Source of the DNA: Sphingobacteriales bacterium
GTDB taxonomy: Bacteria > Bacteroidota > Bacteroidia > Chitinophagales > CAIOSU01
Length of the DNA stretch: 64,000 bases
Reading direction: 5' to 3'
NCBI GenBank assembly: GCA_027486795.1
Contig: JAIXOI010000009.1
Coordinates: forward strand, 22,147 to 86,146
This document shows positions 33,281 to 64,000 of this stretch, one piece after another (the stretch's first letter is position 1; every line of letters starts with the position of its first letter). The position numbers were made by a program, and so were the translations under genes. The notes beneath the pieces were generated by a model. It was not told the DNA's origin. It ran no database searches and saw only the letters and a list, made by a program, of their open reading frames with translations.

Positions 33281-34942
33281 GTGAGACGGTTTCCTTTATT
33301 CATCATATTAGTGTTGGTTTACACCAATCTGTTTGCTCAGTTATCTGTGAGCAACAGGGGAGGACTTATATCTATCAAGCAAGGCGGCTTTATCTCCGTT
33401 CATGGCGATTACGAAAGTACCCTAAACGGCTTGGTTGATAATACCGATAGTATCTTCCTTTATGGCGATTGGATAAACAATGCCGGCAACACGGGCTTTA
33501 ACCCAAATGCCGGCGGCACCGTAATACTGAACGATGATGCGCAACGCATCACTGGTTCCGATGTTACCCATTTCGGACGCTTAGACCTTAGAGGCACCGA
33601 TGTGAAGTATGGCGACCTAGATGTAGTGGTTGACGAGGAGTTGTTGTTGAATGACCATGAGTTTAGCCTCGATACTAATACTGTTACCGTAACCAACCCT
33701 GCGCTTACTGCCGTTACCAATATTGGCGATGGGTATGTAAGTAGCCTGAATAATGGCGGCCTTGCGCGTAACACCAATAGTGTGGGTGAATATTGGTTTC
33801 CGGTAGGTTCTAATGTAGGTACTTTCCGTTATCGGCCGGTTATGATTACGCCATCATTAGCAAGTGGTTGGGTATATAAGGTGCGCATGGCCAATGTGGA
33901 CCCTACTCTTGAAGGCTTTGATACTGAAGTGCGCCAACCTACTATCTGTGTAGTTAACGAGAACTATTACCATCGTATATTTAGCAACGGTACTGGCAGC
34001 GGCAACCCTGCATCGTTGCGATTTTATTATGACAATGTAGCCGACGGGCCGTTTGAGAATGTCCTTCATTGGCAAAATTTACCTCAGTGGGAAGATGTAG
34101 GCACTGTAAGCAATACCATCGGTTCGCCATTCAGTACCTTGGAAGCAGCTAATTGGGCCGATTTTAGTACGCCAGCCTTCGCCTTGGGCAATGTAAGCAA
34201 GCCGTTTGAAGTATTGGGTTTGGATGAATTTTGCTTAGGCGATACTATTACCTTTACCATTTTAGAAAGTTTTAATGGTTACCAGTTTTACAACGGCAAC
34301 CAGTTATTGCAGGATAGTATCCTAAACACCTACACCATTAACAACTTGGTTTCGGGAGATTCCATTTGGGCTATTGGCATTGATTCTACTTGTATAGCAT
34401 ATGGCAGTGGTCCAGTGCTCACGGCCTTCCCAGTGCCGGTACCTGATGCTGGCCGCGACACTACAGTTTATTTTGGTGCCGATGTAACTTTGTTGGGTAA
34501 CGGTGGGTTGGATTATGAGTGGTACCCCGATTCGGTAGTGGCTTGCGTATACTGCCAAAACACACTGGCCAATGTATTTGAGGATACCGAATTCTTCCTT
34601 ACTGTTGGCAACGAATACGGTTGTAAGGCGGTTGACACGGTTTGGATATATACCAGTGCCGAAATTGATCCACGTGAGGTATTGAACATACCTAACGCCA
34701 TTACCCCCAATGGCGATGGCGTAAACGATAGCTGGAACATCCGGAACTTGAGCTTATACCCCGACAACGAAATTATTATCCTCAATCGTTGGGGTAGCGA
34801 GATGTATCGTCAAGGACCTTATACCCGTAATTGGAACGGCACCTACAATGGCACCGATTCACCAGCGGGCACGTATTATTACCTCATCAAGCTCAATAAT
34901 ATTGGCGAAGTGCTTACTGGCCCGCTTACTGTTATACGCTAG
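33281..34942 (+). CDS. secreted protein with T9SS type-B (gliding-motility-associated, CHU_C) C-terminal sorting domain
   Basis: Signal peptide. C-terminal PNAITPNGDGVNDSWNI ... LNRWGSEMY ... PAGTYYY. Confidence 0.85.
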   Translation: MRRFPLFIILVLVYTNLFAQLSVSNRGGLISIKQGGFISVHGDYESTLNGLVDNTDSIFLYGDWINNAGNTGFNPNAGGTVILNDDAQRITGSDVTHFGRLDLRGTDVKYGDLDVVVDEELLLNDHEFSLDTNTVTVTNPALTAVTNIGDGYVSSLNNGGLARNTNSVGEYWFPVGSNVGTFRYRPVMITPSLASGWVYKVRMANVDPTLEGFDTEVRQPTICVVNENYYHRIFSNGTGSGNPASLRFYYDNVADGPFENVLHWQNLPQWEDVGTVSNTIGSPFSTLEAANWADFSTPAFALGNVSKPFEVLGLDEFCLGDTITFTILESFNGYQFYNGNQLLQDSILNTYTINNLVSGDSIWAIGIDSTCIAYGSGPVLTAFPVPVPDAGRDTTVYFGADVTLLGNGGLDYEWYPDSVVACVYCQNTLANVFEDTEFFLTVGNEYGCKAVDTVWIYTSAEIDPREVLNIPNAITPNGDGVNDSWNIRNLSLYPDNEIIILNRWGSEMYRQGPYTRNWNGTYNGTDSPAGTYYYLIKLNNIGEVLTGPLTVIR

Positions 34943-35010: not shown

Positions 35011-36138
35011 ATGAATATACCTTACAATAAACCATATATTTCTGGTAACGAACTGGCTTACATTGAGGCAGCTATTAAGGAGGGCACCATATCTGGCGAT
35101 GGCAGCTTTACACACAAGTGCCAGCAGTTACTGCAACAGCGCTATGGCTTTAAGAAATGTTTACTGACCACCAGCTGCACCGATGCCTTGGAGCTTGCGG
35201 CCCTTTTGTTGGATGTTGGCCCTGGCGATGAGGTTATTGTTCCGTCATATACATTTGTTTCTAGTGCCAATGCTTTTATACTTCGCGGAGCAACCGTACT
35301 TTTTGCCGACTCATCGGCCGAAAGCCCCAATATTGACCCAGAGAGCATTCGCAGCCTCATTACTCCCAATACCAAAATAATAGTGGTGGTGCATTATGCG
35401 GGCATACCCTGCGACATGGATGCCATTAACGCCATTGCCCAAGAATATGGCATTTATGTGGTAGAGGATGCTGCTCACGCTTTGGATGCCTTTTACAAAG
35501 GCACACCTGCCGGGGCGTTGGGCACTATGGCAGCTTTCTCGTTTCATGCTACTAAAAATGTGATTGCCGGCGAAGGTGGTATGCTGGTAATAAACGATGA
35601 GCAGTTTGCGGCTAGGGCAGAGGTGCTTCGCGAGAAGGGAACTAATCGTGCAGCTTTTTTAAGGGGCGAAATAGATAAATATGAGTGGGTTGATACAGGT
35701 TCTTCTTTTTCGCCATCGGAGCTAAATGCGGCTTTTCTGTTTGCGCAGCTTGAACAACTAGATACCATTCAAAAACGTAGGTTGCACCTTTGGAACCGAT
35801 ATTACGCGGGCCTTCGTATGCTTGAATTGGGCAAGCAAGCGCAACTGCCCCTGGTGCACGATTATGAGACACACAGTGCGCATGTGTTTTACCTGGTTTG
35901 TGCCAATGCCGATGAGCGTATCGCCTTGATTGACCATCTAAAGAGCAACGGCATACAAGCCGTTTTCCATTATCTATCGTTGCATCAAAGCCCGTATTAT
36001 TTGCAGCAGCATGTACCCGCCAAATTGCCCTTTGCCCAGCATTATGCATATTGCCTAGTTAGGCTGCCACTCTACTTTGAACTTACCGATGAGCAGGTAG
36101 ACTGCGTTGTTGGCAAGGTGTTGGAGTTTTATGCTTGA
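35011..36138 (+). CDS. wecE: dTDP-4-amino-4,6-dideoxygalactose transaminase (DegT/DnrJ/EryC1 family)
   Basis: Close resemblance to E. coli WecE as I recall it through the N-terminal half (GDGSFT..CQQ, SCTDALELAALLLDVGPGDEVI.PSYTFVS.ANAF.LRGA). Confidence 0.8.
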   Translation: MNIPYNKPYISGNELAYIEAAIKEGTISGDGSFTHKCQQLLQQRYGFKKCLLTTSCTDALELAALLLDVGPGDEVIVPSYTFVSSANAFILRGATVLFADSSAESPNIDPESIRSLITPNTKIIVVVHYAGIPCDMDAINAIAQEYGIYVVEDAAHALDAFYKGTPAGALGTMAAFSFHATKNVIAGEGGMLVINDEQFAARAEVLREKGTNRAAFLRGEIDKYEWVDTGSSFSPSELNAAFLFAQLEQLDTIQKRRLHLWNRYYAGLRMLELGKQAQLPLVHDYETHSAHVFYLVCANADERIALIDHLKSNGIQAVFHYLSLHQSPYYLQQHVPAKLPFAQHYAYCLVRLPLYFELTDEQVDCVVGKVLEFYA

Positions 36139-52592: not shown

Positions 52593-52624
52593 AAAACAAA
52601 AAAGCCTCCCATTGCTGGAAGGCT
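52593..52624 (-). terminator. intrinsic terminator after tRNA-Gln
   Basis: The minus strand has stem AGCCTTCC...GGGAGGCT (one mismatch) followed by TTTTTTGTTTT. Confidence 0.7.
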
Positions 52625-52629
52625 TCTTG

Positions 52630-52702
52630 TTGGTCCACTAGGTCTCGAACCTAGACTCTTCTGTACCAAAAACAGACGTGTTACCAATTACACCATAGAC
52701 CA
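52630..52702 (-). tRNA. tRNA-Gln (anticodon TTG)
   Basis: Manual cloverleaf of 73 nt: acceptor TGGTCTA/TGGACCA, D stem GTGT/ACAC, anticodon stem TCTGT/ACAGA with loop TTTTGGT, and T arm CTAGG-TTCGAGA-CCTAG. CCA is not encoded. Confidence 0.9.
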
Positions 52703-52963: not shown

Positions 52964-53668
52964 TTGAAGCCTATGAACAGACAAGTAACAAATGCCATTC
53001 GTTTTTTGATGGACGAATGCATGCCGCCCCTGATTAGAGATAACAAGTACTTTATGTACCCGTTGTTTTACATCTGGTTCAAGGGCAATAATATACAAAA
53101 GCATATGGAGTTCAAATCGCTGGTGTACGATTGGACCGAAGAAGAGTTTGCTCGCTTTTACCAAGAGCGCGACTCGCTAGCAACCGACCGCGTAACCGAT
53201 TTGAGTGAGCAGAGTATTGATTATATGCTCGAGCGGTTGGATAAAGGTTCTAAAACGCTGTTAGACGTGGGTTGCGGCAATGGCTATTTTTTACAGAAGG
53301 CTCGCAAAGCCGGATACGACATACATGGATGCGATGTGTTGCAAGAGGTGAAAATTGAAGGGGGCACCTACCACCAGGGCAACCTAGAGAAACTTCCTTT
53401 CCCAGACAATTATTTTGATATTGTAACCTGTCACCACACGCTTGAGCACGTTATCAATCTGGAAGTATCGGTAAGCGAATTGAAACGAGTAGCCAAAAAC
53501 CAAGTGGTAGTAGTAGTGCCTTGCCAAAGGTATTTTTATTATACCCTTGACGAGCACGTGCGTTTCTTCCCATACAAGGCACTCGTTACCAATATGATGC
53601 AAATGAAAAACTCCGTTTGCGAAAAGGTTTGGGGCGATTGGGTATTCATCGGAAACAAAGAGCATTAA
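52964..53668 (+). CDS. class I SAM-dependent methyltransferase
   Basis: Motif I LLDVGCGNGYF and post-I acidic residue. The gene ends 3 nt before the GT2 gene. Confidence 0.8.
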   Translation: MKPMNRQVTNAIRFLMDECMPPLIRDNKYFMYPLFYIWFKGNNIQKHMEFKSLVYDWTEEEFARFYQERDSLATDRVTDLSEQSIDYMLERLDKGSKTLLDVGCGNGYFLQKARKAGYDIHGCDVLQEVKIEGGTYHQGNLEKLPFPDNYFDIVTCHHTLEHVINLEVSVSELKRVAKNQVVVVVPCQRYFYYTLDEHVRFFPYKALVTNMMQMKNSVCEKVWGDWVFIGNKEH

Positions 53669-53671
53669 TCC

Positions 53672-54463
53672 ATGTCGAGAAGCGCAACATTAAACAAGGA
53701 TGTAAGACCAGACGTAAGTTTGGTAATACCTTGCTATAATGAAGAAAAGCGCATACATATACTTACCGCCGCATTAAAAGAACTTGAGCAGCACCACACT
53801 TTCAATTTCGAAGTATTGGTAGTTGATGATGGCAGTACTGATAGCACGGTAGCCCAAATACAGCAGGATAAATTTTTAAAGGAGCTAGAAGCCAAAGGCA
53901 AGTTCCGGTTAATTGTTTCGGCCGCCAATGGTGGCAAAGGTGCTGCGTTAAGGCAAGGCGTTTTGGCTGCAAATGGCCATTATATACTTACCTTGGATGC
54001 TGATATGAGCACCCATCCGCTGCAATTGGAGAAATGGCGCGATAGCTTGGGCGGCCATTTTAACAACAAAGAAATTTATATCGGCTCTCGTCCGCACCCT
54101 CAGTCAAAGCTACAGGAAAAGCCAAGTCGCAAGTTTATCGGTATCATATTCAATTTTTATGTTCGCCTGTTTAGCGAGCTTACCGTAAAGGATAGCCAGT
54201 GTGGCTTTAAACTTTACCCAGCCGATATTGCCAAGAAGTTATTTGATAGCATGAAGGTAATGGGATGGGCGCACGATGTAGAGATCCTATATAAAGCGCA
54301 ACTGCTCGGTTATAAAATTACGGAAATGCCCGTAGTTTGGGATGTAAGAGATAATAGCAAAGTATCGGTGGTGCGCGATTCGGTAAAGATGTTCTTTCAA
54401 ATACTCAACATATCATTATATGTGAGGTTTAAATGGAAAAAAGAAATGTATGGCAACCGCTAA
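53672..54463 (+). CDS. family-2 glycosyltransferase, ALG5/GtrB-like polyprenyl-phosphate hexosyltransferase
   Basis: LVIPCYNEE, VVDDGSTDST, NGGKGAALRQG, LDADMS, DSQCGFKLY and WAHDVEILY motifs. Confidence 0.75.
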   Translation: MSRSATLNKDVRPDVSLVIPCYNEEKRIHILTAALKELEQHHTFNFEVLVVDDGSTDSTVAQIQQDKFLKELEAKGKFRLIVSAANGGKGAALRQGVLAANGHYILTLDADMSTHPLQLEKWRDSLGGHFNNKEIYIGSRPHPQSKLQEKPSRKFIGIIFNFYVRLFSELTVKDSQCGFKLYPADIAKKLFDSMKVMGWAHDVEILYKAQLLGYKITEMPVVWDVRDNSKVSVVRDSVKMFFQILNISLYVRFKWKKEMYGNR

Positions 54464-56552
54464 GAAACCAACATCGAATGCAACACTTGAGCCATTAACT
54501 GAAAAGCCGATTTTCAGAAGGCTGTTTTGGATATTGATAGCTGTGCTGGGCTTGTTGATGCCCATATTGAGCACCACAACCGGCATAAACGCCGACGATA
54601 GATGGCAAATAGCCAAGAGCAAGGCAATAGTTGCCTACTACTACACTATGGGCGAGGATACTTCCATTTACCGAACCTACGAAGAGTCATTGGCTTTGAT
54701 GGCCCAGTATGGCGAGGTAAAAGGTAAAGAGATGGGTTTTGATAAGTGGGTGCCCGACCCTGACAAGCTGCGCTACTATGGTGGCTTTTTTGAGCTTACC
54801 ACTGGAGTAATAAATGACCTTATTGGCAATAAAGACGAGTTTTCTTGGAGCTATATAAACGTAAGGCACATATTTAATGCGCTACTGGGGGTGTTGTGCA
54901 TTATGTTTGCAGGTTTGTTGGCTTTTCAGCTTACAGGTGCTTGGCGGGCTGCGGTGCTTACTGCTGTGCTGTTAGCGTTTTCGCCCAACTTTTTTGGGCA
55001 CTCTTTAATGAATCCCAAGGATATACCTTTTGCTTTCGGTTATTTAATGACAGTGTATTTTTTAGTGCGCTTTATTAAAGGCCTGCCTGAGGTAAACTGG
55101 GGTGTAGTTTCGGGTTTAACTGCCGCCATTGCTATCACCCTTAATATTAGGGCAGGCGGTTTGCTGTTAATAGTTTATACCCTGTTTTTTTCGGGTGCTT
55201 ATTATTTTTTCCATGCTTTTATCACAAAGGACCCACGGTTCGATATGAAGAAGCTCGTGAAAGTTGTCGGTGCTCTGGCATTGATAAGTGTTGCGGGTTA
55301 TTTTCTAGGAGTAATCTTTTGGCCATTTGGTTTAAGTAACCCACTTACCGCTCCGTTCGATGCATTGACGTTGCTCACCAATTATGAGGTAAACATTGTT
55401 CAATTGTTTGATGGAGGGCAAATAATGTCAACCGAGTTACCTTGGTATTACTTGCCTAAGTACATTGTTATCACCAATCCTTATTTTTTACATCTTGGGC
55501 TATTATTGTTTATTGTTTTAGTTTGGAAGTATTTGAAACAGCTAGATTGGCAGCTTTTGGCCTTTTTGTTGTTCGTTACACTATTCCCAGTATTCTATAT
55601 TCTCTACAAAAACTCCAATGTTTATAATGGTTGGAGGCATGTGCTGTTTATTTATCCTTTGCTTATAATGTTTGCGGCCAGCGGCTGGGAGTTATTACTG
55701 CGAACCCTTAAAGCCGCATGGGCGCCCTATGTTGTTGGCGGTGCTATTGGCATATTGATGCTGCTGCCCGCTGTGTGGATGGTGGGCAACCACCCGTACC
55801 ACTATGCTTATTTTAATGAGCTTGCCGGAGGTACTGGCAGTGCCTGGAAAAACTACGAAACCGACTATTGGATGCTAGGGGTGCGCGAAGCCTCCTTAGA
55901 ATTGTACGAAAAAGAGAAATTGGCCCAGAGCCCTAAGAAGATAGTGATAGGTACCAACTGCTTCTTCCCGGCTCAAACCTACTTTGGTATTTTAGATAAG
56001 GAGAATATTGAGGTACGCTACATCCGCTACTACGAAAAATGGCAAAAGCCGTGGGATTATGGCATTTTCTACAATGGTTATATTAACCCATACGAGTTGC
56101 AGAACGATTTATTTCCACCTTCATCAACCATCATAACCACCAAAGCGGGTGGTGCGCCCCTTTGTGCAGTTTTAAAGCGCCAAGATACTTTTGATCTGGC
56201 AGCCTATGAAGCGATGGGAAAACAAGCTTTTGCTGAAGCCGCGCCGCTGTTCGTTAAAGCGCTGCAAACTCGCAACCGTGAGGCAGACCTATACCGCGAT
56301 TTGGGCTTCTGCTACCTTAATCTAGGCGATTTGCCTAATGCAATTAATTCGCTTAATAACTCAGTGAGCCTTAATCCTGACGATTTTGGGTCGAACTATT
56401 ATATAGGCGTGGCTTATGCCCAAAGCAGTAAGCCAAACCTAACTATGGCAGCAAATTATTTGAACAAAGCATTGACTATCAATCCGGGAGCCACGCAAGT
56501 AAGGCAATTGCTCGACCAAATTAACAAGGCAAACCAAGGTGGATTCCGTTAA
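54450..56552 (+). CDS. polytopic GT-C-type glycosyltransferase (ArnT/PMT-like) with C-terminal TPR repeats
   Basis: More than 10 hydrophobic helices with an ArnT/PMT_2-like layout and C-terminal TPR (LGFCYLNLGDLPNAINSLNNSVSLNPDD). The start overlaps the GT2 gene by 14 nt. Confidence 0.65.
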   Translation: MATAKKPTSNATLEPLTEKPIFRRLFWILIAVLGLLMPILSTTTGINADDRWQIAKSKAIVAYYYTMGEDTSIYRTYEESLALMAQYGEVKGKEMGFDKWVPDPDKLRYYGGFFELTTGVINDLIGNKDEFSWSYINVRHIFNALLGVLCIMFAGLLAFQLTGAWRAAVLTAVLLAFSPNFFGHSLMNPKDIPFAFGYLMTVYFLVRFIKGLPEVNWGVVSGLTAAIAITLNIRAGGLLLIVYTLFFSGAYYFFHAFITKDPRFDMKKLVKVVGALALISVAGYFLGVIFWPFGLSNPLTAPFDALTLLTNYEVNIVQLFDGGQIMSTELPWYYLPKYIVITNPYFLHLGLLLFIVLVWKYLKQLDWQLLAFLLFVTLFPVFYILYKNSNVYNGWRHVLFIYPLLIMFAASGWELLLRTLKAAWAPYVVGGAIGILMLLPAVWMVGNHPYHYAYFNELAGGTGSAWKNYETDYWMLGVREASLELYEKEKLAQSPKKIVIGTNCFFPAQTYFGILDKENIEVRYIRYYEKWQKPWDYGIFYNGYINPYELQNDLFPPSSTIITTKAGGAPLCAVLKRQDTFDLAAYEAMGKQAFAEAAPLFVKALQTRNREADLYRDLGFCYLNLGDLPNAINSLNNSVSLNPDDFGSNYYIGVAYAQSSKPNLTMAANYLNKALTINPGATQVRQLLDQINKANQGGFR

Positions 56553-56589
56553 TTGTTATTAATAATTGTGTAATACATGTTAATGCAAG

Positions 56590-56618
56590 TTGCCTTTAAC
56601 ATGATTTTCTTATTTTTG
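56590..56618 (+). promoter_or_regulatory. candidate Bacteroidota sigma-A promoter (TTG ... TATTTTTG)
   Basis: A TAnnTTTG-type -7 element at 56611-56618 has a TTG 18 nt upstream. It lies 22 nt before the ATG at 56641. Confidence 0.4.
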
Positions 56619-56640
56619 GTGGCTTGATAAAACCGCATTC

Positions 56641-59600
56641 ATGAAACAGTATAAACTGGCGAACGACATAGCCGGATGGTTGGTCTTCCTAGTCGCCCTT
56701 ATAACCTACACACTCACCCTAGAAGCAACCACCAGTTTTTGGGATTGCGGGGAGTTTATATCAGGAGCCTACAAACTGCAAGTGGTTCACCCACCGGGCG
56801 CACCTATGTTCTTGTTGCTGGGCCGTTTGGCTACCATGTTTGCTTTCGATGACCCCAATTGGATTGCTTGGACCGTTAACTTTCTTTCGGGCTTGACGAG
56901 TGCCTTTTCGGTATTGTTCCTGTTCTGGATAACCACCCATTTTGCTCGCAAAATTGTAGCAGGTACTCAAATACCTACTACCATGCAAACCATAGCCATT
57001 ATAGCTACTGGTGCTATTGCTGGCTTAGCTTGTACCTTTACCGATACCATTTGGTTCTCGGCTGTTGAGGGCGAGGTATATGCCATGTCTTTGTTCTTTA
57101 TGATGCTCGTTTTCTGGACGATGTTGAAATGGGAAAGCTGCGAAGACGACCAATATCGTGATAAGTGGTTGGTGCTTACCTTTTTCTTGTTAGGCGTATC
57201 GAGCGGTGTTCACTTATTGAGCTTCTTGGCCATACCGCCAATGGCTTTGATATATTACTTTAAGGAGTACAAGAACCCTAAACCACTTGGTATTTTGGTT
57301 TCGCTGGTAATCGGCTTTGTTATCCTTGGCTTTTTCTTCAAAGGTATCGTTAGTGGCTTGATAAGCATTATTGCGTCTTTTGAACTCTTTGCAGTTAATA
57401 GCTTGGGCTTTGGTGTAGGTATTGGTTTCGGCATTTTTGTGCTGATTTTGGCCGCTTTGATTGTTGGAGGCCTATATGCAACCAAAGAAGGTAATGCTGC
57501 CAGCCGTTTGATAGGTGGTATGTCAAGGACAAAATTGCATGTTGCCATGCTTTGCTTTCTTATGACCATGATTGGCTTCTCAACTTACACAATTGTGGTT
57601 ATTCGTGCCGGTGCCGATACGCCTATTAACATGAACAACCCCGATAACGTGTTTATGCTAGAAAGCTACCTAAATAGGGAGCAATACGGCAGCCGTGCGT
57701 TGGTATATGGCCCTAATTATACGGCATATCCAACTGAGATAGAAGATAAAGGAAACCGCTATTTCCCTATTGAAGACAAAAAAACGGGTAAAGTAACTTA
57801 TGAGATTATAGGTAAGAAAGTTGACTATAAATTTGACAAGAAGGACATGATGTTTATGCCTCGCATGGGCTCATGGAACGATGATAGGCACGTAATGGCA
57901 TACAGGGCAATGCTTAACCCTGATTTTGCAGTTGTTGACCGCCAATCGGGACAGACTGTGAAAGAGTTTTCAAGTGAGAAACAAGGTTGGCAGTCGGCCT
58001 ACCAGCAAGCCCAAAACTTTGCTCAATCTTCATCTACTGGTTCGCTGGTAGTGAAGGATTTGATTTCGCAACGCGACAACATGTCGTTCTTTTTCAGATA
58101 CCAAGTAGGGGTTATGTATCTGCGCTATTTCTTCTGGAATTTTACCGGCAGGCAGAACGATATTCAAGGCCGTTTTGATAACAATGAAGGCAAAGCCATT
58201 ACTGGCATTGGTTTTATTGACAACAACATTGTTGGGCCATCTGAGAATTTGCCCGAATGGAGGAAAGATAATGCTGGCATGAATAAATATTTCATTTTGC
58301 CTTTCTTGCTAGGATTGATTGGCATGTATTATCATGCGAAGCGCGATTGGAAAGGCTTTTCTATTATTTTAGTGCTGTTCTTGTTTACTGGAGTACTTCA
58401 GGTAATTTACCTAAACTCACCACCTTTTGAGCCTAGGGAAAGGGATTATACCCTTGTAGGCTCCTTTGTTACCTTCTGTTTATGGATTGGTTTTGGTATG
58501 TTGGCCATTTATAAGGCCCTAGAGAACAGCAAGTTAAATAGTAAATTGGCACTGTCATTGTCTTTTGCGGTAAGTTTATCGGTGCCATTGGTGTTGGTTT
58601 CTCAAAATTGGGATGATCACGATCGTTCAGGACGCTACACGGCGAGGGATTTTGCCATCAACTATCTTGAATCATGTGCTCCTAATGCCATCATTTTTAC
58701 CCAAGGCGATAACGATACATACCCATTGTGGTATGCACAGGAGGTAGAAAACATTCGACCAGATATTAGGGTAGTGAACCTTAGCCTGCTAGGTGTTGAC
58801 TGGTATGTGCAGCAATTGGAGTACAAAATGAACGAGGCACCAGCGGTAAAACTATCCTTGACGCCGGAGAAATACAGAGGCAACACTCGCGATGTGGTTC
58901 GTTTTTATGATACAGGCAAATTTGACCAGAAGAGCTATTACCCACTGGCCGATGTAATAGGATATATTGCCAATGATGGCAATAAGCTGCGCACCCAAGG
59001 CGGCGAAATGGTAGAAGTGTTTCCAGTAAAGAACTTTTACTTGCCTGTTGATAAAGAAAAGGTAATTGCCAACGGCATTGTTCCAGCAGAGTACTATGAC
59101 CGAATAGCTGACCAGCTCAGGTGGTCGTTGGGTGACAAGAGCAATTTGCTAAAAAATGACTTGGTTACCTTGGATATTGTAGCGTCAAATCTTTGGGAGC
59201 GCCCAATTTACTTTGCGGTATCAGTAAGCCCAGATGCTTATCTTGGTTTAGATAAATACTTCCAATTGGAAGGATTGGCGTACCGTATAGTGCCTGTTGA
59301 GAGCGCAAACGGCGGCAACGGCTACATAGCTCAAAACATGATGTACGAAAATGCCATGACCAAATTCCGTTGGGGAGGTATTGAGCGCAAAAAAGTAATT
59401 GATTACACTGTAGCTAGCGGCGAAACTTTGGCAACTGTTGCCTATAAGCACAACCAAACGGTAGCCCAATTGAAAGCCTATAACAAGCTTGCCACAGATG
59501 AAGTGGCTGTTGGTACTAAGCTCAAAATTGAAGTGCCACAATGGATTTATCTGGATGAGAACATTAACCGGATGACTATGAACCTGCGCAGTAACTTTGG

Positions 59601-59976
59601 CAGGTTGGCGGAAGACTTAATTGCATCTAATAAAAAGGCTGAAGCTGTTAAAGTGCTAGACGAAAGCCTCAAGGTAATGCCAGAAGAAACATTGCCGTAT
59701 AATGTGTTTATGCTTCGCTACCCTGACATTTACTATAAGGCAGGAGCTAAAGAACAAGCGCAATTATTAATGCGCAAAGTGCTTGACCATACCTTGGAAG
59801 AATATGCTTACCTGCAGGATGTGAAAGATTTTGAACCAGGCTACAAGCGTGATTCTGATCAATCAATAGCCATATTATCTGAGTTGAGGCGTATAGCCAC
59901 CAACAACCAAGATAGTGAGCTAGTAGAGGAGATAAGTCAAAAATTAATGCAGCTACAAGGAATGGGTGCATTTTAA
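56641..59976 (+). CDS. DUF2723/TMEM260-like polytopic glycosyltransferase-family protein with embedded LysM domain
   Basis: Hallmark N-terminal FWDCGEFI, more than 10 helices, and a large extracytoplasmic C-terminal region containing LysM (YTVASGETLATVAYKHNQTVAQLKAYNKLATDEVAVGTKLKIEVP). Confidence 0.75.
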   Translation: MKQYKLANDIAGWLVFLVALITYTLTLEATTSFWDCGEFISGAYKLQVVHPPGAPMFLLLGRLATMFAFDDPNWIAWTVNFLSGLTSAFSVLFLFWITTHFARKIVAGTQIPTTMQTIAIIATGAIAGLACTFTDTIWFSAVEGEVYAMSLFFMMLVFWTMLKWESCEDDQYRDKWLVLTFFLLGVSSGVHLLSFLAIPPMALIYYFKEYKNPKPLGILVSLVIGFVILGFFFKGIVSGLISIIASFELFAVNSLGFGVGIGFGIFVLILAALIVGGLYATKEGNAASRLIGGMSRTKLHVAMLCFLMTMIGFSTYTIVVIRAGADTPINMNNPDNVFMLESYLNREQYGSRALVYGPNYTAYPTEIEDKGNRYFPIEDKKTGKVTYEIIGKKVDYKFDKKDMMFMPRMGSWNDDRHVMAYRAMLNPDFAVVDRQSGQTVKEFSSEKQGWQSAYQQAQNFAQSSSTGSLVVKDLISQRDNMSFFFRYQVGVMYLRYFFWNFTGRQNDIQGRFDNNEGKAITGIGFIDNNIVGPSENLPEWRKDNAGMNKYFILPFLLGLIGMYYHAKRDWKGFSIILVLFLFTGVLQVIYLNSPPFEPRERDYTLVGSFVTFCLWIGFGMLAIYKALENSKLNSKLALSLSFAVSLSVPLVLVSQNWDDHDRSGRYTARDFAINYLESCAPNAIIFTQGDNDTYPLWYAQEVENIRPDIRVVNLSLLGVDWYVQQLEYKMNEAPAVKLSLTPEKYRGNTRDVVRFYDTGKFDQKSYYPLADVIGYIANDGNKLRTQGGEMVEVFPVKNFYLPVDKEKVIANGIVPAEYYDRIADQLRWSLGDKSNLLKNDLVTLDIVASNLWERPIYFAVSVSPDAYLGLDKYFQLEGLAYRIVPVESANGGNGYIAQNMMYENAMTKFRWGGIERKKVIDYTVASGETLATVAYKHNQTVAQLKAYNKLATDEVAVGTKLKIEVPQWIYLDENINRMTMNLRSNFGRLAEDLIASNKKAEAVKVLDESLKVMPEETLPYNVFMLRYPDIYYKAGAKEQAQLLMRKVLDHTLEEYAYLQDVKDFEPGYKRDSDQSIAILSELRRIATNNQDSELVEEISQKLMQLQGMGAF

Positions 59977-59987
59977 ATAAATGAAAA

Positions 59988-60014
59988 GCCCTCCCATAGC
60001 GGAGGGCTTTTTTT
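59988..60014 (+). terminator. intrinsic terminator after the DUF2723 gene
   Basis: GCCCTCC-CATAGC-GGAGGGC followed by T7. Confidence 0.85.
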
Positions 60015-60027
60015 ACCACAATAGCGT

Positions 60028-60771
60028 ATGAGAGAGGAGAACCTAATATACGGTAAGCATCCATTGTTGGAAGCTTTGAGGGCAGGTAAGGAGTTTGAGA
60101 AAATTTTGCTGCAAAATGGCACTTCAAATGCAGAGTTGAAGGAGGTGGCTGCGCTTGCCCGGCAAGCAAGTATACCCGTGCAATATGTGCCACATCAAAA
60201 GTTAAACAGTGTTACGCGCAAAAACCATCAAGGTATGATAGGTTTTGGCTCGTTGATACAGTATTACGATGTGCAGGATATTCTTGACCATTGCTACGAT
60301 GAGAACAATGTGCCGTTGTTTGTTTTGCTCGATAGGGTAACCGATGTGCGCAACTTTGGCGCCATAGCCCGCACCGCAGAATGCTTCGGGGCTTCGGCCA
60401 TTATTGTGCCGGCCACTGGCGGTGCGCTTATACATGCCGATGCCATCAAAGCTTCGGCAGGTGCACTTACTACTTTGCCCGTTTGTAAAGTCAATCGTTT
60501 GGAAGATGCTGTTGAATTATTAAAATTGAATGGCCTCCAAATATTAGTAACCGAAATGGAAGCCAGTAAAAACCTGCACGAAATTGACTTTAGTATTCCG
60601 TTAGCCGTTATCATGGGCTCAGAAGGGGAGGGCGTAAGTGGCCGTTTGGCCAGTATGGCCGATGATAGTTTCAAAATACCTATGGTAGGCATCACAGAGT
60701 CTCTAAACGTGTCGGTTGCAGCTGGTATGGTATTGTACGAAGCGTTGCGCCAGCGTCTGCTTAAAGCTTAA
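60028..60771 (+). CDS. rlmB: 23S rRNA (guanosine-2'-O)-methyltransferase RlmB (TrmH family)
   Basis: N-terminal substrate-binding domain (IYGKHPLLEAL) plus SpoU motifs (RNFGAIARTAECFGA, GSEGEGVS, ESLNVSVAAGMVLYE). Confidence 0.85.
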   Translation: MREENLIYGKHPLLEALRAGKEFEKILLQNGTSNAELKEVAALARQASIPVQYVPHQKLNSVTRKNHQGMIGFGSLIQYYDVQDILDHCYDENNVPLFVLLDRVTDVRNFGAIARTAECFGASAIIVPATGGALIHADAIKASAGALTTLPVCKVNRLEDAVELLKLNGLQILVTEMEASKNLHEIDFSIPLAVIMGSEGEGVSGRLASMADDSFKIPMVGITESLNVSVAAGMVLYEALRQRLLKA

Positions 60772-60780
60772 TACGCCATG

Positions 60781-61722
60781 TTAGTTCGGTATATGCACTA
60801 GCATATCTGCTACCATAGTTTGCAAGTCATAATCTGGTTCCCAGCCCCAATCAAGTCGTGCATAATTGTCATCAATACTTACTGGCCAAGTTTCGGCTAT
60901 ATGTTGCCTAAAGTCAGGGGCATAGCCGATACTGAAATTTGGCAATTGTACTTTAATAGCATTGGCAAGCTCGGCAGGGGTAAAAGATAAGCTTGATACA
61001 TTATAGCTTGACCGAATGCGCAAATCATCAGCATCGGCTTCCATGAGTGCTAAGGTTGCTTTAATGGCATCAGGCATATACATCATCGGCAAGCGCTGGT
61101 CTTCTTTCAAGAAACAGGTATATTGTCCACGCGCCTTAGCCTCATAAAATATCTCCACAGCATAGTCGGTAGTGCCGCCGCCAGGTTTGCTACCATAACT
61201 TATAAGCCCTGGGTAACGTAAGCTGCGCACATCGAGCCCACGATTGCGATAGTAATAGTTGCACCAGCGCTCACCGGCCAATTTACTAATGCCGTAAATG
61301 GTATCAGGGTCCGTAACGGCGTATTGCGGTGTCAGGCGTTTTTTACTATGGTTGCCAAACACGGCAATGGAGCTTGGCCAGAATACTTTTTTTACGCCCA
61401 ATGTTGCACTTGCTTCTAGCACGTTTAGCAAGCCTTCCATATTTACTTGCCAAGCTAACCTAGGGTTTTGTTCGCCAGTTGCCGATAGAATGGCAGCGAG
61501 ATGGTAAACTTGGGTTACTTTATGTTTCGCAAATGCCTCATTTACCGCCTTAGCATCCATTATATCCAAAAGCTCAAACGGTCCGTTACTGCTGTTTTTG
61601 GCTTGGCGTATGTCCGAAGCGATAACGTTGTCGGCTCCATATTTTGCACGCAAAGCCATTACCAACTCAGTACCAATCTGTCCATTGGCACCAAGCACCA
61701 ATATCATTTCACGGGGTTCCAT
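60781..61722 (-). CDS. tdh: NAD-dependent epimerase/dehydratase-family L-threonine 3-dehydrogenase
   Basis: VLGANGQIGTEL, VIASDIR, FWPSSIAVFG and YGISK (YxxxK). It resembles the SDR-type TDH of flavobacteria as I recall it. An alternative start exists at 61707. Confidence 0.7.
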   Translation of the reverse strand: MEPREMILVLGANGQIGTELVMALRAKYGADNVIASDIRQAKNSSNGPFELLDIMDAKAVNEAFAKHKVTQVYHLAAILSATGEQNPRLAWQVNMEGLLNVLEASATLGVKKVFWPSSIAVFGNHSKKRLTPQYAVTDPDTIYGISKLAGERWCNYYYRNRGLDVRSLRYPGLISYGSKPGGGTTDYAVEIFYEAKARGQYTCFLKEDQRLPMMYMPDAIKATLALMEADADDLRIRSSYNVSSLSFTPAELANAIKVQLPNFSIGYAPDFRQHIAETWPVSIDDNYARLDWGWEPDYDLQTMVADMLVHIPN

Positions 61723-61751
61723 ACAAAGGGCGGTTTCGGGGGCAAAGGTAA

Positions 61752-61786
61752 GTACGATTTATGATTTACGAGGTACGATGTTCGAT
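61752..61786. repeat. degenerate heptamer array GTACGAT TTATGAT TTACGAG GTACGAT GTTCGAT
   Basis: Read directly. The unit is the reverse complement of the ATCGTAC phase of the 31120-31147 array. Confidence 0.8.
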
Positions 61787-61888
61787 TGTCTTATCAAATC
61801 AAAAATCAATTTGGCTTCACATCTTACTAGTAACAATACGTTCCGTAGCTTTGTATTTCATTTATTTAACCTCAATTGTACAGGTTAC

Positions 61889-61906
61889 CTCGTGTACTTC
61901 GTACAT
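61889..61906. repeat. short CGTAC-type heptamer stretch (CTCGTGTACTTCGTACAT)
   Basis: It shares the 13-nt string GTACTTCGTACAT with 31121-31133 and is inverted relative to 61752-61786. Confidence 0.7.
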
Positions 61907-61942
61907 ATTTTACTACTTTTATTTTCGCTTAAAGAGGCCCTA

Positions 61943-64000
61943 ATGAAAACGAACGATTTAAAAGCCAATATTTTACCCCATCTGGCAGCGCTGCTTATTT
62001 TTGTAATGCTATCTTATGTTTATTTGATGCCGCTGCTGCAAGGCTCTGTATTGGCTCAGCACGATTATACCCAAGCAATGGGTCAGCAACACGAGATAAC
62101 CGAGTATGTAGATAAAACTGGTGACCAGACACTGTGGACCAACTCCATGTTTAGTGGTATGCCAAGCGTGCAAATTTGGCTTGGCTACCCTAGCAATTTG
62201 GTTGGGCAGTTGTATGTTTTTATCAGCGCCTTGTTTGTAAACGAAACCAACATCCTCTTCTTTTTGATGGCAGGGGTTTATTTAGCCTTATATCCTCTCA
62301 CCAAAAACGTTTGGATAAGTACAGCCGGTGCTGCGGCTTTTGCCTTTGCTTCTTTTAACATGATAAGCATTGAAGCTGGCCACTTGAACAAGGTGCTGGC
62401 TATGGCTTTTATGGCACCAATGTTGGCAGGCATAATTATAGCCTACCAGGGCAAGTGGCTGGCAGGAGCTTTGTTAACTGGCTTTTTCCTGGCTATACAG
62501 CTAAGGGCTGGGCACATACAAATAACCTACTATACCGTAATTGCAGGTGCAATATTGGCCTTATTTTTTGTTGAACATGCCATTGTAAAAAAGGCTATGC
62601 CTATGTTTTTGAAAGCTACGGCAGCGCTCGCTTTTGCTACGGTATTGGCAGTAGGGAGCAACACCGCACAAATATGGGGCACTTACGAGTATAGTCACGC
62701 TACTATAAGGGGCGGTAAATCGGAGTTGTCGAACGTAAAGCCTGAGGATAAGCAAGGCGGTTTGACCAAGGATTATGCCTTCAACTGGAGCCAAGGTATT
62801 GACGAGACCATGACCATACTTATACCCAACTTTATGGGTGGCGGTAGTTCGGGCAATTACGAGGGCACTGAGTCGCATAAAAAAATGGTAGCCTTGCTTA
62901 AGCAAAATGGTTACCCTGCAAAAGAAGCCGATAAGGTTGCCAATCAAGTAGCCGGAAGCGAACTATATTGGGGCGACCAGCCGTTTACCTCGGGGCCAAT
63001 TTATTTTGGTGCTATTGTGTGCTTTTTGTTTGTGTTGGGCATTTTTGTTATTAAGCATCCTTACAAGTGGGCAATGCTGGGTGTAGCAATACTTGCAATA
63101 ATGTTGGCTTGGGGTAAAAACTTTCCTGCATTCAACTACTTTGTTTTCGACCATGTCCCGATGTATAATAAGTTTCGTACACCAACCATGATACTTACCA
63201 TCACCAATTTGGTGTTTGTATTGGTCGGGTTTTTGGGCTTAAAGGAAATTTGGGAAACCAAGGATAAGCAAATGGCTTTAAAGCAATTGAAAATAGCGGT
63301 GGGCATTGTTGGTGGTGTGTTAGTTTTGTTTGGCCTAGGCGCGGGTATTTTCTTCGATTTTACGGGAGCGCCCAAAGGACAGGAATATATAGATGCAGCT
63401 ACCAAAATAGCCGACCGAAAAAGCCTTTTAAGTGGCGATGCTTTCCGTTCATTGTTTTTGGTTTTGGCAGCTGGTGGGCTCGTTTGGGTGCTCATTACCG
63501 AAAAGCTCAAAAAACAATACGTTGTGGCTTTGTTGGGTGTGCTTATTTTAGGCGATTTATGGAGCGTGAGCAAGCGATACCTGAACGATGATGATTTCGT
63601 TTCTAAATCTGAATATGATAGAATGTTTGTGCCGAGCGAGGCTGACCAATTGGTGCTGCGAGATACCGACTTGAGTTACAGGGTGCTCGATTTTGCAGGC
63701 GGAGCGCCGTTTACCAATGCATCTACTTCTTATTTCCATAAATCTATAGGGGGATACCATGCCGCTAAATTGCGCATCTATCAAGAGTTGATAGAGAACC
63801 AAATATCAAAGGATATGGGTACATTGCAACAGGGCCTTAAAAATGGCGCGGTGCCCGAGAATTTGCCCATACTCAATATGCTCAATACCCGATATTTCCT
63901 TTTGGGAAAAAAGGGAGGCGAGGTAGTGCGCAATCCTTATGCAGCGGGCAATGCTTGGTTTGTTTCCAATATACTTACCGTAAACACCGCCGATGAGGAG
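61943..64000 (+). CDS. large polytopic membrane protein, YfhO-like (putative GT-C glycosyltransferase), 3' end runs off the window
   Basis: I translated all 686 codons from the ATG at 61943 to nt 64000 and found no stop, which is why it is absent from the ORF track. It has many TM helices, and the motifs WTNSMFSGMP and SIGGYHAAKLRIYQELI resemble Bacteroidota YfhO-family proteins as I recall them. Confidence 0.6.
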   Translation, partial: MKTNDLKANILPHLAALLIFVMLSYVYLMPLLQGSVLAQHDYTQAMGQQHEITEYVDKTGDQTLWTNSMFSGMPSVQIWLGYPSNLVGQLYVFISALFVNETNILFFLMAGVYLALYPLTKNVWISTAGAAAFAFASFNMISIEAGHLNKVLAMAFMAPMLAGIIIAYQGKWLAGALLTGFFLAIQLRAGHIQITYYTVIAGAILALFFVEHAIVKKAMPMFLKATAALAFATVLAVGSNTAQIWGTYEYSHATIRGGKSELSNVKPEDKQGGLTKDYAFNWSQGIDETMTILIPNFMGGGSSGNYEGTESHKKMVALLKQNGYPAKEADKVANQVAGSELYWGDQPFTSGPIYFGAIVCFLFVLGIFVIKHPYKWAMLGVAILAIMLAWGKNFPAFNYFVFDHVPMYNKFRTPTMILTITNLVFVLVGFLGLKEIWETKDKQMALKQLKIAVGIVGGVLVLFGLGAGIFFDFTGAPKGQEYIDAATKIADRKSLLSGDAFRSLFLVLAAGGLVWVLITEKLKKQYVVALLGVLILGDLWSVSKRYLNDDDFVSKSEYDRMFVPSEADQLVLRDTDLSYRVLDFAGGAPFTNASTSYFHKSIGGYHAAKLRIYQELIENQISKDMGTLQQGLKNGAVPENLPILNMLNTRYFLLGKKGGEVVRNPYAAGNAWFVSNILTVNTADEE

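Follow-up and report, generated by a model that had tools for sequence, protein, structure and literature searches.

A DPM1-like glycosyltransferase gathered with three different GT-C proteins in a Bacteroidota genome: a candidate locus for lipid-linked sugar transfer

Towards the end of a 64,000-nucleotide (nt) stretch of DNA from a Sphingobacteriales bacterium (the window; contig JAIXOI010000009.1) lies a cluster of genes for a putative polyprenyl-phosphate sugar synthase and three membrane proteins of the GT-C type, and so a candidate for a sugar transfer system acting outside the cytoplasm. Four plus-strand genes come first. These are for an S-adenosylmethionine (SAM) dependent methyltransferase (52964-53668; 234 amino acids (aa), from an open reading frame (ORF) call and a Methyltransf_11 match), a GT2 glycosyltransferase (53672-54463; 263 aa, ORF call and PF00535), a polytopic GT-C protein carrying TPR repeats (the GT-C/TPR protein; 54450-56552; 700 aa, with PMT, PMT_2 and TPR matches) and a polytopic TMEM260-like protein (56641-59976; 1111 aa, with PF11028 and LysM matches). 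They are followed by rlmB on the plus strand (60028-60771), by the SDR gene tdh on the minus strand (60781-61722) and by a plus-strand ORF of the YfhO family (61943-64000), which runs off the window end with about 685 of its about 830 aa visible. An earlier note, made from the sequence of this DNA, had called these ORFs and proposed that one synthase serves all three GT-C families; all of its ORFs are present, its rlmB name holds (TIGR00186 at 191 bits, exceeding the cut-off), and the overlap that it gave for the GT2 and GT-C/TPR genes is exactly 14 nt as read from the sequence, ATGGCAACCGCTAA.

The four leading genes look like one terminator-bounded transcription unit, from 52964 to 59976, because of their spacing (3 nt between the methyltransferase and GT2 genes, the 14-nt overlap, and 88 nt from the GT-C/TPR to the TMEM260-like gene) and of what comes then, a plus-strand terminator-like hairpin with seven T that begins 8 nt past the TMEM260-like stop codon (59984-60014; GCCCTCC-CATAGC-GGAGGGC, read from the sequence). 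The same palindrome was also picked up by a scan, as 11 pairs on the minus strand. At the other end a strong terminator-like hairpin (52599-52628) and a minus-strand tRNA-Gln(ttg) gene (52629-52702) separate the unit from an upstream glyoxalase gene. The rlmB gene comes after the internal terminator, tdh is convergent with rlmB and the YfhO gene is divergent from tdh; judged by this arrangement the YfhO gene appears to be a transcription unit of its own, apart from the four-gene unit. A scan for sigma-70 promoters was uninformative, with 20 sites against 22 expected, and its consensus does not cover Bacteroidota promoters.

The GT2 protein matches PF00535 at 2.3e-26 over residues 16-191, and its translation holds all four of the motifs pointed out before (NGGKGAALRQG, LDADMS, DSQCGFKLY and WAHDVEILY), with the DAD triplet of the DxD motif lying within LTLDADMS. 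Residues 14-258 align full-length with the Dol-P-Man synthase of Pyrococcus furiosus (5mlz, 4e-10), and the structures of GtrB and ArnC are also matched in the PDB. The placement in an ALG5/GtrB-like family is thereby confirmed, and the protein is of the DPM1/ALG5/GtrB/ArnC type and a predicted polyprenyl-phosphate sugar synthase. Against the NCBIfam models AglJ, ArnC and PpgS some 210-235 residues align at sub-threshold scores, and there is weak similarity to PgfS. No membrane anchor of its own, such as GtrB, ArnC and the archaeal dolichol-phosphate mannose synthases have, is seen in the GT2 (maximum KD19 hydropathy 1.16), and since there is no transmembrane (TM) helix it would seem that the protein cannot anchor itself in the membrane. 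In this it is like human DPM1, which depends on a partner in the membrane.

The GT-C/TPR protein passes the gathering cut-offs of both PMT (PF02366; 30.9 bits, 2.5e-7, cut-off 22.7) and PMT_2 (PF13231; 28.7 bits, 1.8e-6, cut-off 26.1), and Pfam places TPR at residues 584-694, where helices 581-695 of the AlphaFold model (pLDDT 88.5, pTM 0.89) form TPR hairpins next to a small periplasmic alpha/beta domain. Foldseek searches with this model return ArnT (5f15) as best match at 8e-7 and then STT3, Pmt4, ALG9 and DPY19, all at probability 1.00; the likeness to ArnT is at the level of the fold only, at 12-14% identity. Directly after TM1, in the first loop, the protein carries GINADD (residues 44-49). 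Across a 27-sequence alignment of the family D49 never varies, nor do R139, D191, R396 and H397, and G45, I46 and N47 hardly do. Relatives bear NCBI names of the PMT kind; despite these, membership of GT39 (PMT proper) was rejected, there being no Pfam match to a MIR domain. The TMTC-specific DUF1736 is not present either, a Pfam scan at E <= 0.01 giving only PMT, PMT_2 and TPR, and no TMTC structure or sequence was recovered in the homolog and fold searches. As far as the fold model and the motifs allow, the protein is best taken for a GT-C enzyme whose layout is like that of TMTC and TfpW and which belongs to neither GT39 nor GT105; this bears out its description as an ArnT/PMT-like polytopic protein with C-terminal TPRs.

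The best-supported part of the finding is that the GT2 and GT-C/TPR proteins appear to be a real functional pair. An exhaustive search of 1.84 billion representatives was made with the GT2, and the 150 nearest proteins were classed by architecture: 83 are stand-alone GT2s, and 41 (13 among the top 20) are fusions to a GT-C or GT-C/TPR, in which the GT2 sits N-terminal of a homolog of the adjacent window GT-C/TPR protein. Starting from the GT-C protein, at least 9 more fusions came to light, their N-terminal domains matching the window GT2 full-length at 1e-62 to 1e-78. The fusion of this GT2 to the GT-C protein in relatives implies a membrane partner for an otherwise anchor-less enzyme, and it backs the proposal of a polyprenyl-phosphate synthase-like GT2 working with a GT-C. 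Among 80 metagenomic loci with GT-C/TPR homologs (L and P numbers below are our handles for loci and proteins of relatives) a GT2 is fused in 4, immediately precedes the gene in 6 and lies no more than a few kb away in another 4, and so the pairing is frequent and not obligatory. A frameshifted fusion, that is a split pseudogene, was rejected as an explanation of the separate window genes: locus L081 shows the same split into 263 and 700 aa with a GT2 86% identical to that of the window, and stand-alone GT2s of 250-266 aa are common among the nearest relatives. The remaining 25 of the 150 join GT2 to another or an unidentified region; one of them is fused to an MprF-type LPG_synthase_TM flippase-like domain (P0454), and several are GT2-GT2 tandems, P0365 being cited among the GT2 relatives.

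The methyltransferase is a class I SAM-dependent enzyme by its Methyltransf_11 match (2.4e-18), and with no predicted TM segment it is expected to be soluble. Translation may start at a point a few codons past the TTG; in a homolog at L131, 50% identical over 230 aa, the first 47 aa are conserved. The methyltransferase gene adjoins a DPM1-like GT2 gene in L081, L082, L166 and L167, and it does so as two non-orthologous methyltransferase and GT2 pairs, mutually 28-30% identical, each of which stands beside GT-C/TPR genes; therefore the association seems to be functional and not a matter of descent alone. One of the 150 nearest GT2 relatives (P0418) is itself fused to methyltransferase domains, two in number.

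The 1111-aa protein is on profile and structure matches a member of the TMEM260/DUF2723 family (CAZy GT117), a GT-C family, as had been proposed: PF11028 matches at 220 bits (2.2e-65, cut-off 24.2) over residues 35-212, covering model positions 1-177 of 179, and the human TMEM260 structure 9rql matches a profile of the family at 6.5e-21 in two blocks, the second of which (profile positions 581-694, human residues 366-479) includes a GDxD...LxY motif. D35 of the window protein aligns with human D52 (FWD35CGE in the bacterial and GGD52SGE in the human protein), and the human D52A variant is catalytically inactive. An alignment of 24 TMEM260-like sequences shows D35, E38, H50 and the GDNDT block to be invariant. 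About 10 TM segments and a large C-terminal periplasmic region are predicted; a LysM domain (residues 922-963, 2.1e-8) is an insert shared by the closest homologs alone and not family-wide, and relatives also carry PF28495 and PF28497. The family has at least 7995 homologs and its genes occur in all orders of Bacteroidota, with at least 597 species-level genomes matched. No characterised bacterial DUF2723/GT117 member was found in the literature searched, in agreement with the earlier note.

The surroundings of TMEM260-like genes were compared at 80 distant Bacteroidota loci (L001-L080, 35-43% identity, 10 kb around the gene). With phmmer no relative of the window GT2, GT-C/TPR or YfhO proteins was found within 10 kb at these loci, and profile hidden Markov models gave one weak GT2 match and three probable TPR-only matches, so that a phylum-wide adjacency of GT2 and GT-C genes around TMEM260-like genes was rejected. 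Their commonest neighbour is a CE4/NodB-type deacetylase gene, which in 35 of the 76 loci with enough sequence comes next downstream in the same orientation (for example L004:13048-13686, L008:3282-3965 and L014:10218-10856), with a gap of 7-160 nt and a product of about 200-220 aa that has no signal peptide or TM segment. This pairing spans metagenome-assembled genomes (MAGs) of Bacteroidales, Marinilabiliales and Flavobacteriales; neither CE4 nor DUF6427 genes were found in the window or in the loci of close relatives and metagenomes (L081-L162). In the trios ArnC/ArnD/ArnT, FlmF2/NaxD/FlmK and LgmA/LgmC/LgmB, which modify lipid A with amino sugars, ArnD and NaxD are paralleled by the CE4 partner, and by this analogy the pairing hints at a de-N-acetylated lipid-linked sugar. 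Tandem TMEM260-like genes exist in some Bacteroidales and Marinilabiliales (L036:9956-16486, L063:5747-12049, L075:6433-13222).

The last ORF is less easily named. Its visible 685 aa give no Pfam or NCBIfam match even at E = 10, and a PDB search with the YfhO-like protein gave no meaningful match. Its full-length relatives are 810-870 aa long and annotated YfhO; one of them (P0121, 97% identical) reaches 27.8 bits with PF09586 against a cut-off of 28.5, over residues 722-803 only, which fall beyond the window end, while another (P0132) reaches 31.6 bits, and all 23 family members tested match PF09586 at E <= 0.01, the best at 5e-13. The predicted structure of P0121 (pLDDT 84) finds AftD by Foldseek at 8.6e-6, and also ArnT, STT3, PglB and EmbB, and D41 in the first loop is invariant in the YfhO-like family, which has 4905 homologs. 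The YfhO-like label given before thus stands through full-length homologs and the P0121 model and is not carried by the visible fragment, which matches no family model; on that model the ORF would be a GT-C enzyme of the Bacteroidota YfhO family with marginal Pfam membership. No CsbB-type GT2 stands beside it, four genes separating it from the window GT2, and in L081, L082, L163-L165, L167 and L168 no GT2 adjoins YfhO. In L168, L081 and L082 the YfhO gene is followed after 2-6 nt by genes for a 173-aa DUF5672 protein and a soluble protein of about 70 aa, which lie past the equivalent of the window end (L168:7140-7876, L081:17829-18569, L082:19266-20011). The 70-aa ORF has the motif NEDVF.SR...CETEFRLG and looks like a detached C-terminal part of the DUF5672 domain. 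Shortly downstream of YfhO a Polysacc_synt (Wzx-like) gene, a candidate flippase, is seen at L082:20004-21476 and L167:12949-14424.

That the three GT-C proteins are paralogs was rejected. Profile-profile comparison gave no significant relationship between the YfhO-like and GT-C/TPR families (probability 1.5%), and between the TMEM260-like and GT-C/TPR families a weak match in the TPR-like tails only (probability 49%); with no relationship detectable, three separate families are present. Their clustering is a clade-level feature of a Chitinophagales-like lineage, the nearest named relatives of the cluster proteins being MAGs of Chitinophagales and Saprospiraceae. All three cluster only where the TMEM260-like protein is 51-84% identical and in a near-identical contig (51-99% overall). 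At 84% L081 has the window gene order, with an extra PMT_2/TPR paralog upstream; the cluster is retained in L167 (59%) and L165 (51%); in L166 (56%) YfhO is not within 10 kb; and in L082 (54%) the methyltransferase-GT2 pair is inverted and a Wzx-like gene comes after YfhO. The GT-C/TPR gene of L083, whose product is 41% identical to that of the window, is followed after 1.7 kb by a TMEM260-like gene. The extra L081 paralog (L081:4154-6163, 669 aa) is directly upstream of the methyltransferase gene, where the window has the tRNA-Gln and glyoxalase genes, and in L166 a gene for a 600-aa secreted protein without a Pfam match is inserted between the GT-C/TPR and TMEM260-like genes (L166:7994-9796). 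Conserved adjacency of GT2 and GT-C genes in Bacteroidota is thus seen for GT2 and GT-C/TPR, which are fused or nearby in metagenomes, and not for the TMEM260-like and YfhO genes outside the clade.

Elsewhere in the window there is little that bears on sugars. Further upstream of the methyltransferase gene lie the glyoxalase gene, a gene for an esterase with a type IX secretion system (T9SS) tail and a gene for a SusC-like receptor, which place the organism in Bacteroidota. About 17 kb upstream of the unit there is a gene for a DegT/DnrJ/EryC1-type sugar aminotransferase (35011-36138, +), the sole other sugar-modification gene among the window ORFs scanned, and near to it a gene for a CHU_C (T9SS) protein (33281-34942, +). 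The tdh gene was considered as a sugar epimerase of the pathway and ruled out in this role; its best PDB matches are SDR-type L-threonine 3-dehydrogenases (2yy7 at 6e-115), in keeping with the name it had been given.

Gene order, membership of families and folds, conserved catalytic residues, GT2-GT-C fusions and a clade-limited synteny are what is directly observed. Of the ways to read them, the one we lean towards, as somewhat probable, has two layers: a lipid-linked-sugar machine of GT2 and GT-C/TPR proteins within the four-gene unit, and two orphan GT-C proteins beside it. At the cytoplasmic face of the membrane the soluble DPM1-like GT2 would be held by its GT-C/TPR partner, and would move one sugar from a nucleotide sugar onto undecaprenyl phosphate. 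The lipid-linked sugar would be flipped by a protein encoded outside the window, and the GT-C/TPR protein would then transfer the sugar in the periplasm by use of the first-loop Asp-Asp motif, to an acceptor held by the TPR and periplasmic domain, for which Ser/Thr residues of envelope proteins are the likeliest candidates. For the co-transcribed methyltransferase a probable role is methylation of that sugar or of the product. The TMEM260-like and YfhO proteins would be phylum-wide orphan GT-C enzymes with conserved jobs of their own in Bacteroidota, which may draw on the lipid-linked donor of the GT2 in this lineage and need not do so. The lipid carrier, the sugar, the flipping, the acceptors and any sharing of a donor are here what we infer, and the cluster is a useful lead and not a demonstrated system.

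Several observations weigh against this two-layer reading. At around 60 of the 80 loci with GT-C/TPR homologs, no GT2 could be detected within 8 kb. In structure the GT-C/TPR protein most resembles ArnT, an enzyme that acts on lipid A and not on protein. An assignment of the sugar of the GT2 through NCBIfam equivalogs was tried and given up, with 40-67 bits against cut-offs of 182-550, and because all of the scores are so far under the cut-offs, neither the sugar nor the lipid acceptor of the GT2 is established. No flippase (GtrA/GtcA, ArnE/F or Wzx) was found in the 64-kb window, whose remaining polytopic ORFs are only of the MerC, SBF and Na/sulfate-symporter families, and the absence of a GtrA-like flippase that had been remarked on is borne out among them. 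Lastly rlmB and tdh, which are functionally unrelated, are also kept in the synteny of the clade, and because of this the synteny alone is weak evidence that the TMEM260-like and YfhO proteins share a pathway with the others. The idea of three GT-C families served by one synthase is accordingly not supported as it was put: YfhO, lying behind rlmB and tdh, forms a divergent unit of its own, and the TMEM260-like and YfhO genes, whose families occur across the phylum, are usually far from such a GT2 (80 loci for the one and 2 for the other).

Close to the window cluster among known systems is eukaryotic O-mannosylation, which uses DPM1, TMTC1-4 (GT105) and TMEM260 (GT117). The window GT2 is DPM1-like and as anchor-less as human DPM1. 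As in the TMTC proteins, GT-C enzymes acting on proteins for which a role of a first-loop DD motif and C-terminal TPRs have been described, the window protein combines a GT-C module resembling ArnT, having the DD motif in its first loop, with TPRs at its C-terminus; unlike them, it has no DUF1736 reported. The 1111-aa protein is for its part truly homologous to TMEM260 in sequence and keeps the catalytic Asp, but it exceeds TMEM260 in length by about 380 aa; an insert of about 250 aa follows TM7, and the LysM insert is found here as well. Many of its bacterial relatives pair with a CE4 deacetylase gene. In actinobacteria Ppm1 and Pmt, a polyprenyl-phosphate mannose synthase and a GT-C of the PMT clan, O-mannosylate secreted proteins; Pmt in contrast belongs to GT39 and is without TPRs, Ppm1 and Pmt are not fused, and the window protein is without MIR. 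TfpW of Pseudomonas aeruginosa, which glycosylates pilin, is a bacterial GT-C that has a DDx motif and ends in a periplasmic TPR domain, and so is like the window protein in layout, though its donor is decaprenyl- or undecaprenyl-linked D-Araf and it is encoded beside the gene of its acceptor, pilA.

A narrower account would have only the methyltransferase, GT2 and GT-C/TPR proteins as a system, with the TMEM260-like and YfhO proteins as neighbours through lineage synteny that use other donors. This is possible, if on the doubtful side. It fits the 80 distant TMEM260-like loci, where bar the one weak GT2 match by profile search no GT2, GT-C/TPR or YfhO relative lies within 10 kb, the two distant YfhO loci with their unrelated gene contexts, the several distant loci in which rlmB also follows the TMEM260-like gene, and the divergent YfhO unit with DUF5672 and 70-aa partners of its own. 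It sits badly with a TMEM260-like gene 88 nt downstream of the GT-C/TPR gene and inside the terminator-bounded unit, with the order GT-C/TPR then TMEM260-like being kept in six relatives down to 41-51% identity despite inversions and insertions, and with YfhO-like genes that also flank GT-C/TPR homologs in L085 and L097.

Rather unlikely, in our estimate, is that the acceptors are glycans or lipids, that is lipopolysaccharide (LPS) or lipid A, exopolysaccharide or peptidoglycan, decorated in the Arn, Gtr or CsbB-YfhO manner. The Arn system is alike in that a GT2 makes an undecaprenyl-phosphate sugar which a GT-C transfers in the periplasm, ArnC matching the window GT2 and ArnT the GT-C/TPR protein; it differs in that the window unit is without a CE4 gene, an ArnE/F-like flippase or adjacent genes for sugar-nucleotide modification, and in that ArnT has no TPR. 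Such acceptors are favoured by the top fold matches (ArnT for the GT-C/TPR protein; AftD, ArnT and Emb for the YfhO-like model), and also by the LysM insert of the window TMEM260-like protein (a domain binding N-acetylglucosamine glycans), the signal-less CE4 downstream of TMEM260-like genes and the GT4 and Wzx-like genes that adjoin YfhO in relatives; but the LysM insert is confined to the closest homologs, the window has no CE4 gene, TMEM260 itself is protein-specific, and TPR domains on GT-C enzymes have so far been tied to protein acceptors (TMTC, TfpW). In Firmicutes a GT2 makes an undecaprenyl-phosphate monosaccharide that is flipped and then transferred outside by a GT-C (PMC8035078, PMC5836110, PMC12041528), examples being CsbB/GtlA with GtcA and YfhO/GtlB for teichoic acids, and streptococcal GtrB with PgtC2 and Pgf for Ser/Thr-rich protein regions. 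Teichoic acids are what the YfhO enzymes characterised so far glycosylate (PMC5836110, PMC8035078). A GT2 of the same type is present in the window, with GT-C proteins including a YfhO-family member, but the host is Gram-negative, the GT2 lacks TM helices and in relatives is frequently GT-C-fused, a GtrA/GtcA flippase is absent, and the YfhO-like protein is marginal in Pfam and not beside the GT2.

The boldest account has the cluster as, or as including, the initiation machinery of the phylum-wide protein O-glycosylation of Bacteroidota. The GT2 would make undecaprenyl-phosphate mannose, the TMEM260-like and/or YfhO proteins would attach the reducing-end hexose or the core glycan at Ser/Thr of D(S/T)(A/I/L/V/M/T) motifs, and the other GT-C proteins and the methyltransferase would extend or decorate it. 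In most species the reducing end of the O-glycan is a mannose, and methylated sugars occur in these glycans; a review that calls the core machinery, flippase and oligosaccharyltransferase undiscovered suggests seeking homologs of eukaryotic O-mannosylation (PMC12871550); a July 2026 preprint, for which the oligosaccharyltransferase is still unidentified, proposes Bacteroidota YfhO in silico, and the last ORF of the window belongs to that YfhO family, with relatives in Bacteroidales 43% identical. TMEM260 is besides a proven protein O-mannosyltransferase whose catalytic Asp is invariant in a bacterial family spread over all orders of the phylum. We nevertheless hold this account to be unlikely, since outside one clade the TMEM260-like and YfhO genes adjoin neither a DPM1-like GT2 gene nor each other, the CE4 de-N-acetylase as commonest TMEM260-like partner points to an amino sugar and not to mannose, current models favour transfer of the core oligosaccharide en bloc (PMC12871550), and the preprint reports YfhO absent from P. 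gingivalis, a species with a documented O-glycoproteome. Alistipes species and endosymbionts are likewise said to be without YfhO.

The two-layer reading, with GT2 and GT-C/TPR proteins as partners in lipid-linked sugar transfer, is in its overall logic already known as multi-component transmembrane glycosylation (Gtr, Arn, CsbB/YfhO, GtrB/PgtC2, Pgf, Ppm1/Pmt), and that logic is documented for protein and for polymer acceptors (PMC8035078, PMC5836110, PMC12041528). What is new is the frequent covalent fusion of synthase and GT-C, the TMTC-like layout in bacteria and a bacterial TMEM260/GT117 protein in the same unit. The fusions are a "Rosetta stone" link of a DPM1-like synthase to a TPR-bearing GT-C, and from their architecture suggest how an anchor-less synthase gets recruited to the membrane. 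The phylum-wide pairing of TMEM260-like and CE4 genes was unexpected and constrains the possible donor sugar.

The enzymes attaching the conserved Bacteroidota O-glycan core have been missing for more than 15 years, on which the 2025 review (PMC12871550) and the July 2026 preprint concur. The link of the cluster to this question is real but indirect. The TMEM260-like family is an obvious additional candidate for the oligosaccharyltransferase, with the CE4 partner urging caution on mannose, and the locus yields a short list of three GT-C candidates. That TMEM260-like proteins, alone or with YfhO, initiate protein O-glycosylation in Bacteroidota, with a DPM1-like GT2 supplying the polyprenyl-phosphate hexose, seems quite improbable; if true, the window cluster would be a rare gathering of the whole pathway (synthase, TMTC-like, TMEM260-like and YfhO proteins) in one place, and two of the three animal O-mannosylation pathways would have bacterial roots. 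Were the protein-glycosylation reading wrong, the locus would still be a new arrangement of a known scheme of lipid-linked sugar decoration, and were it true, it would open up a core step of a pathway that is important for the fitness of gut Bacteroides.

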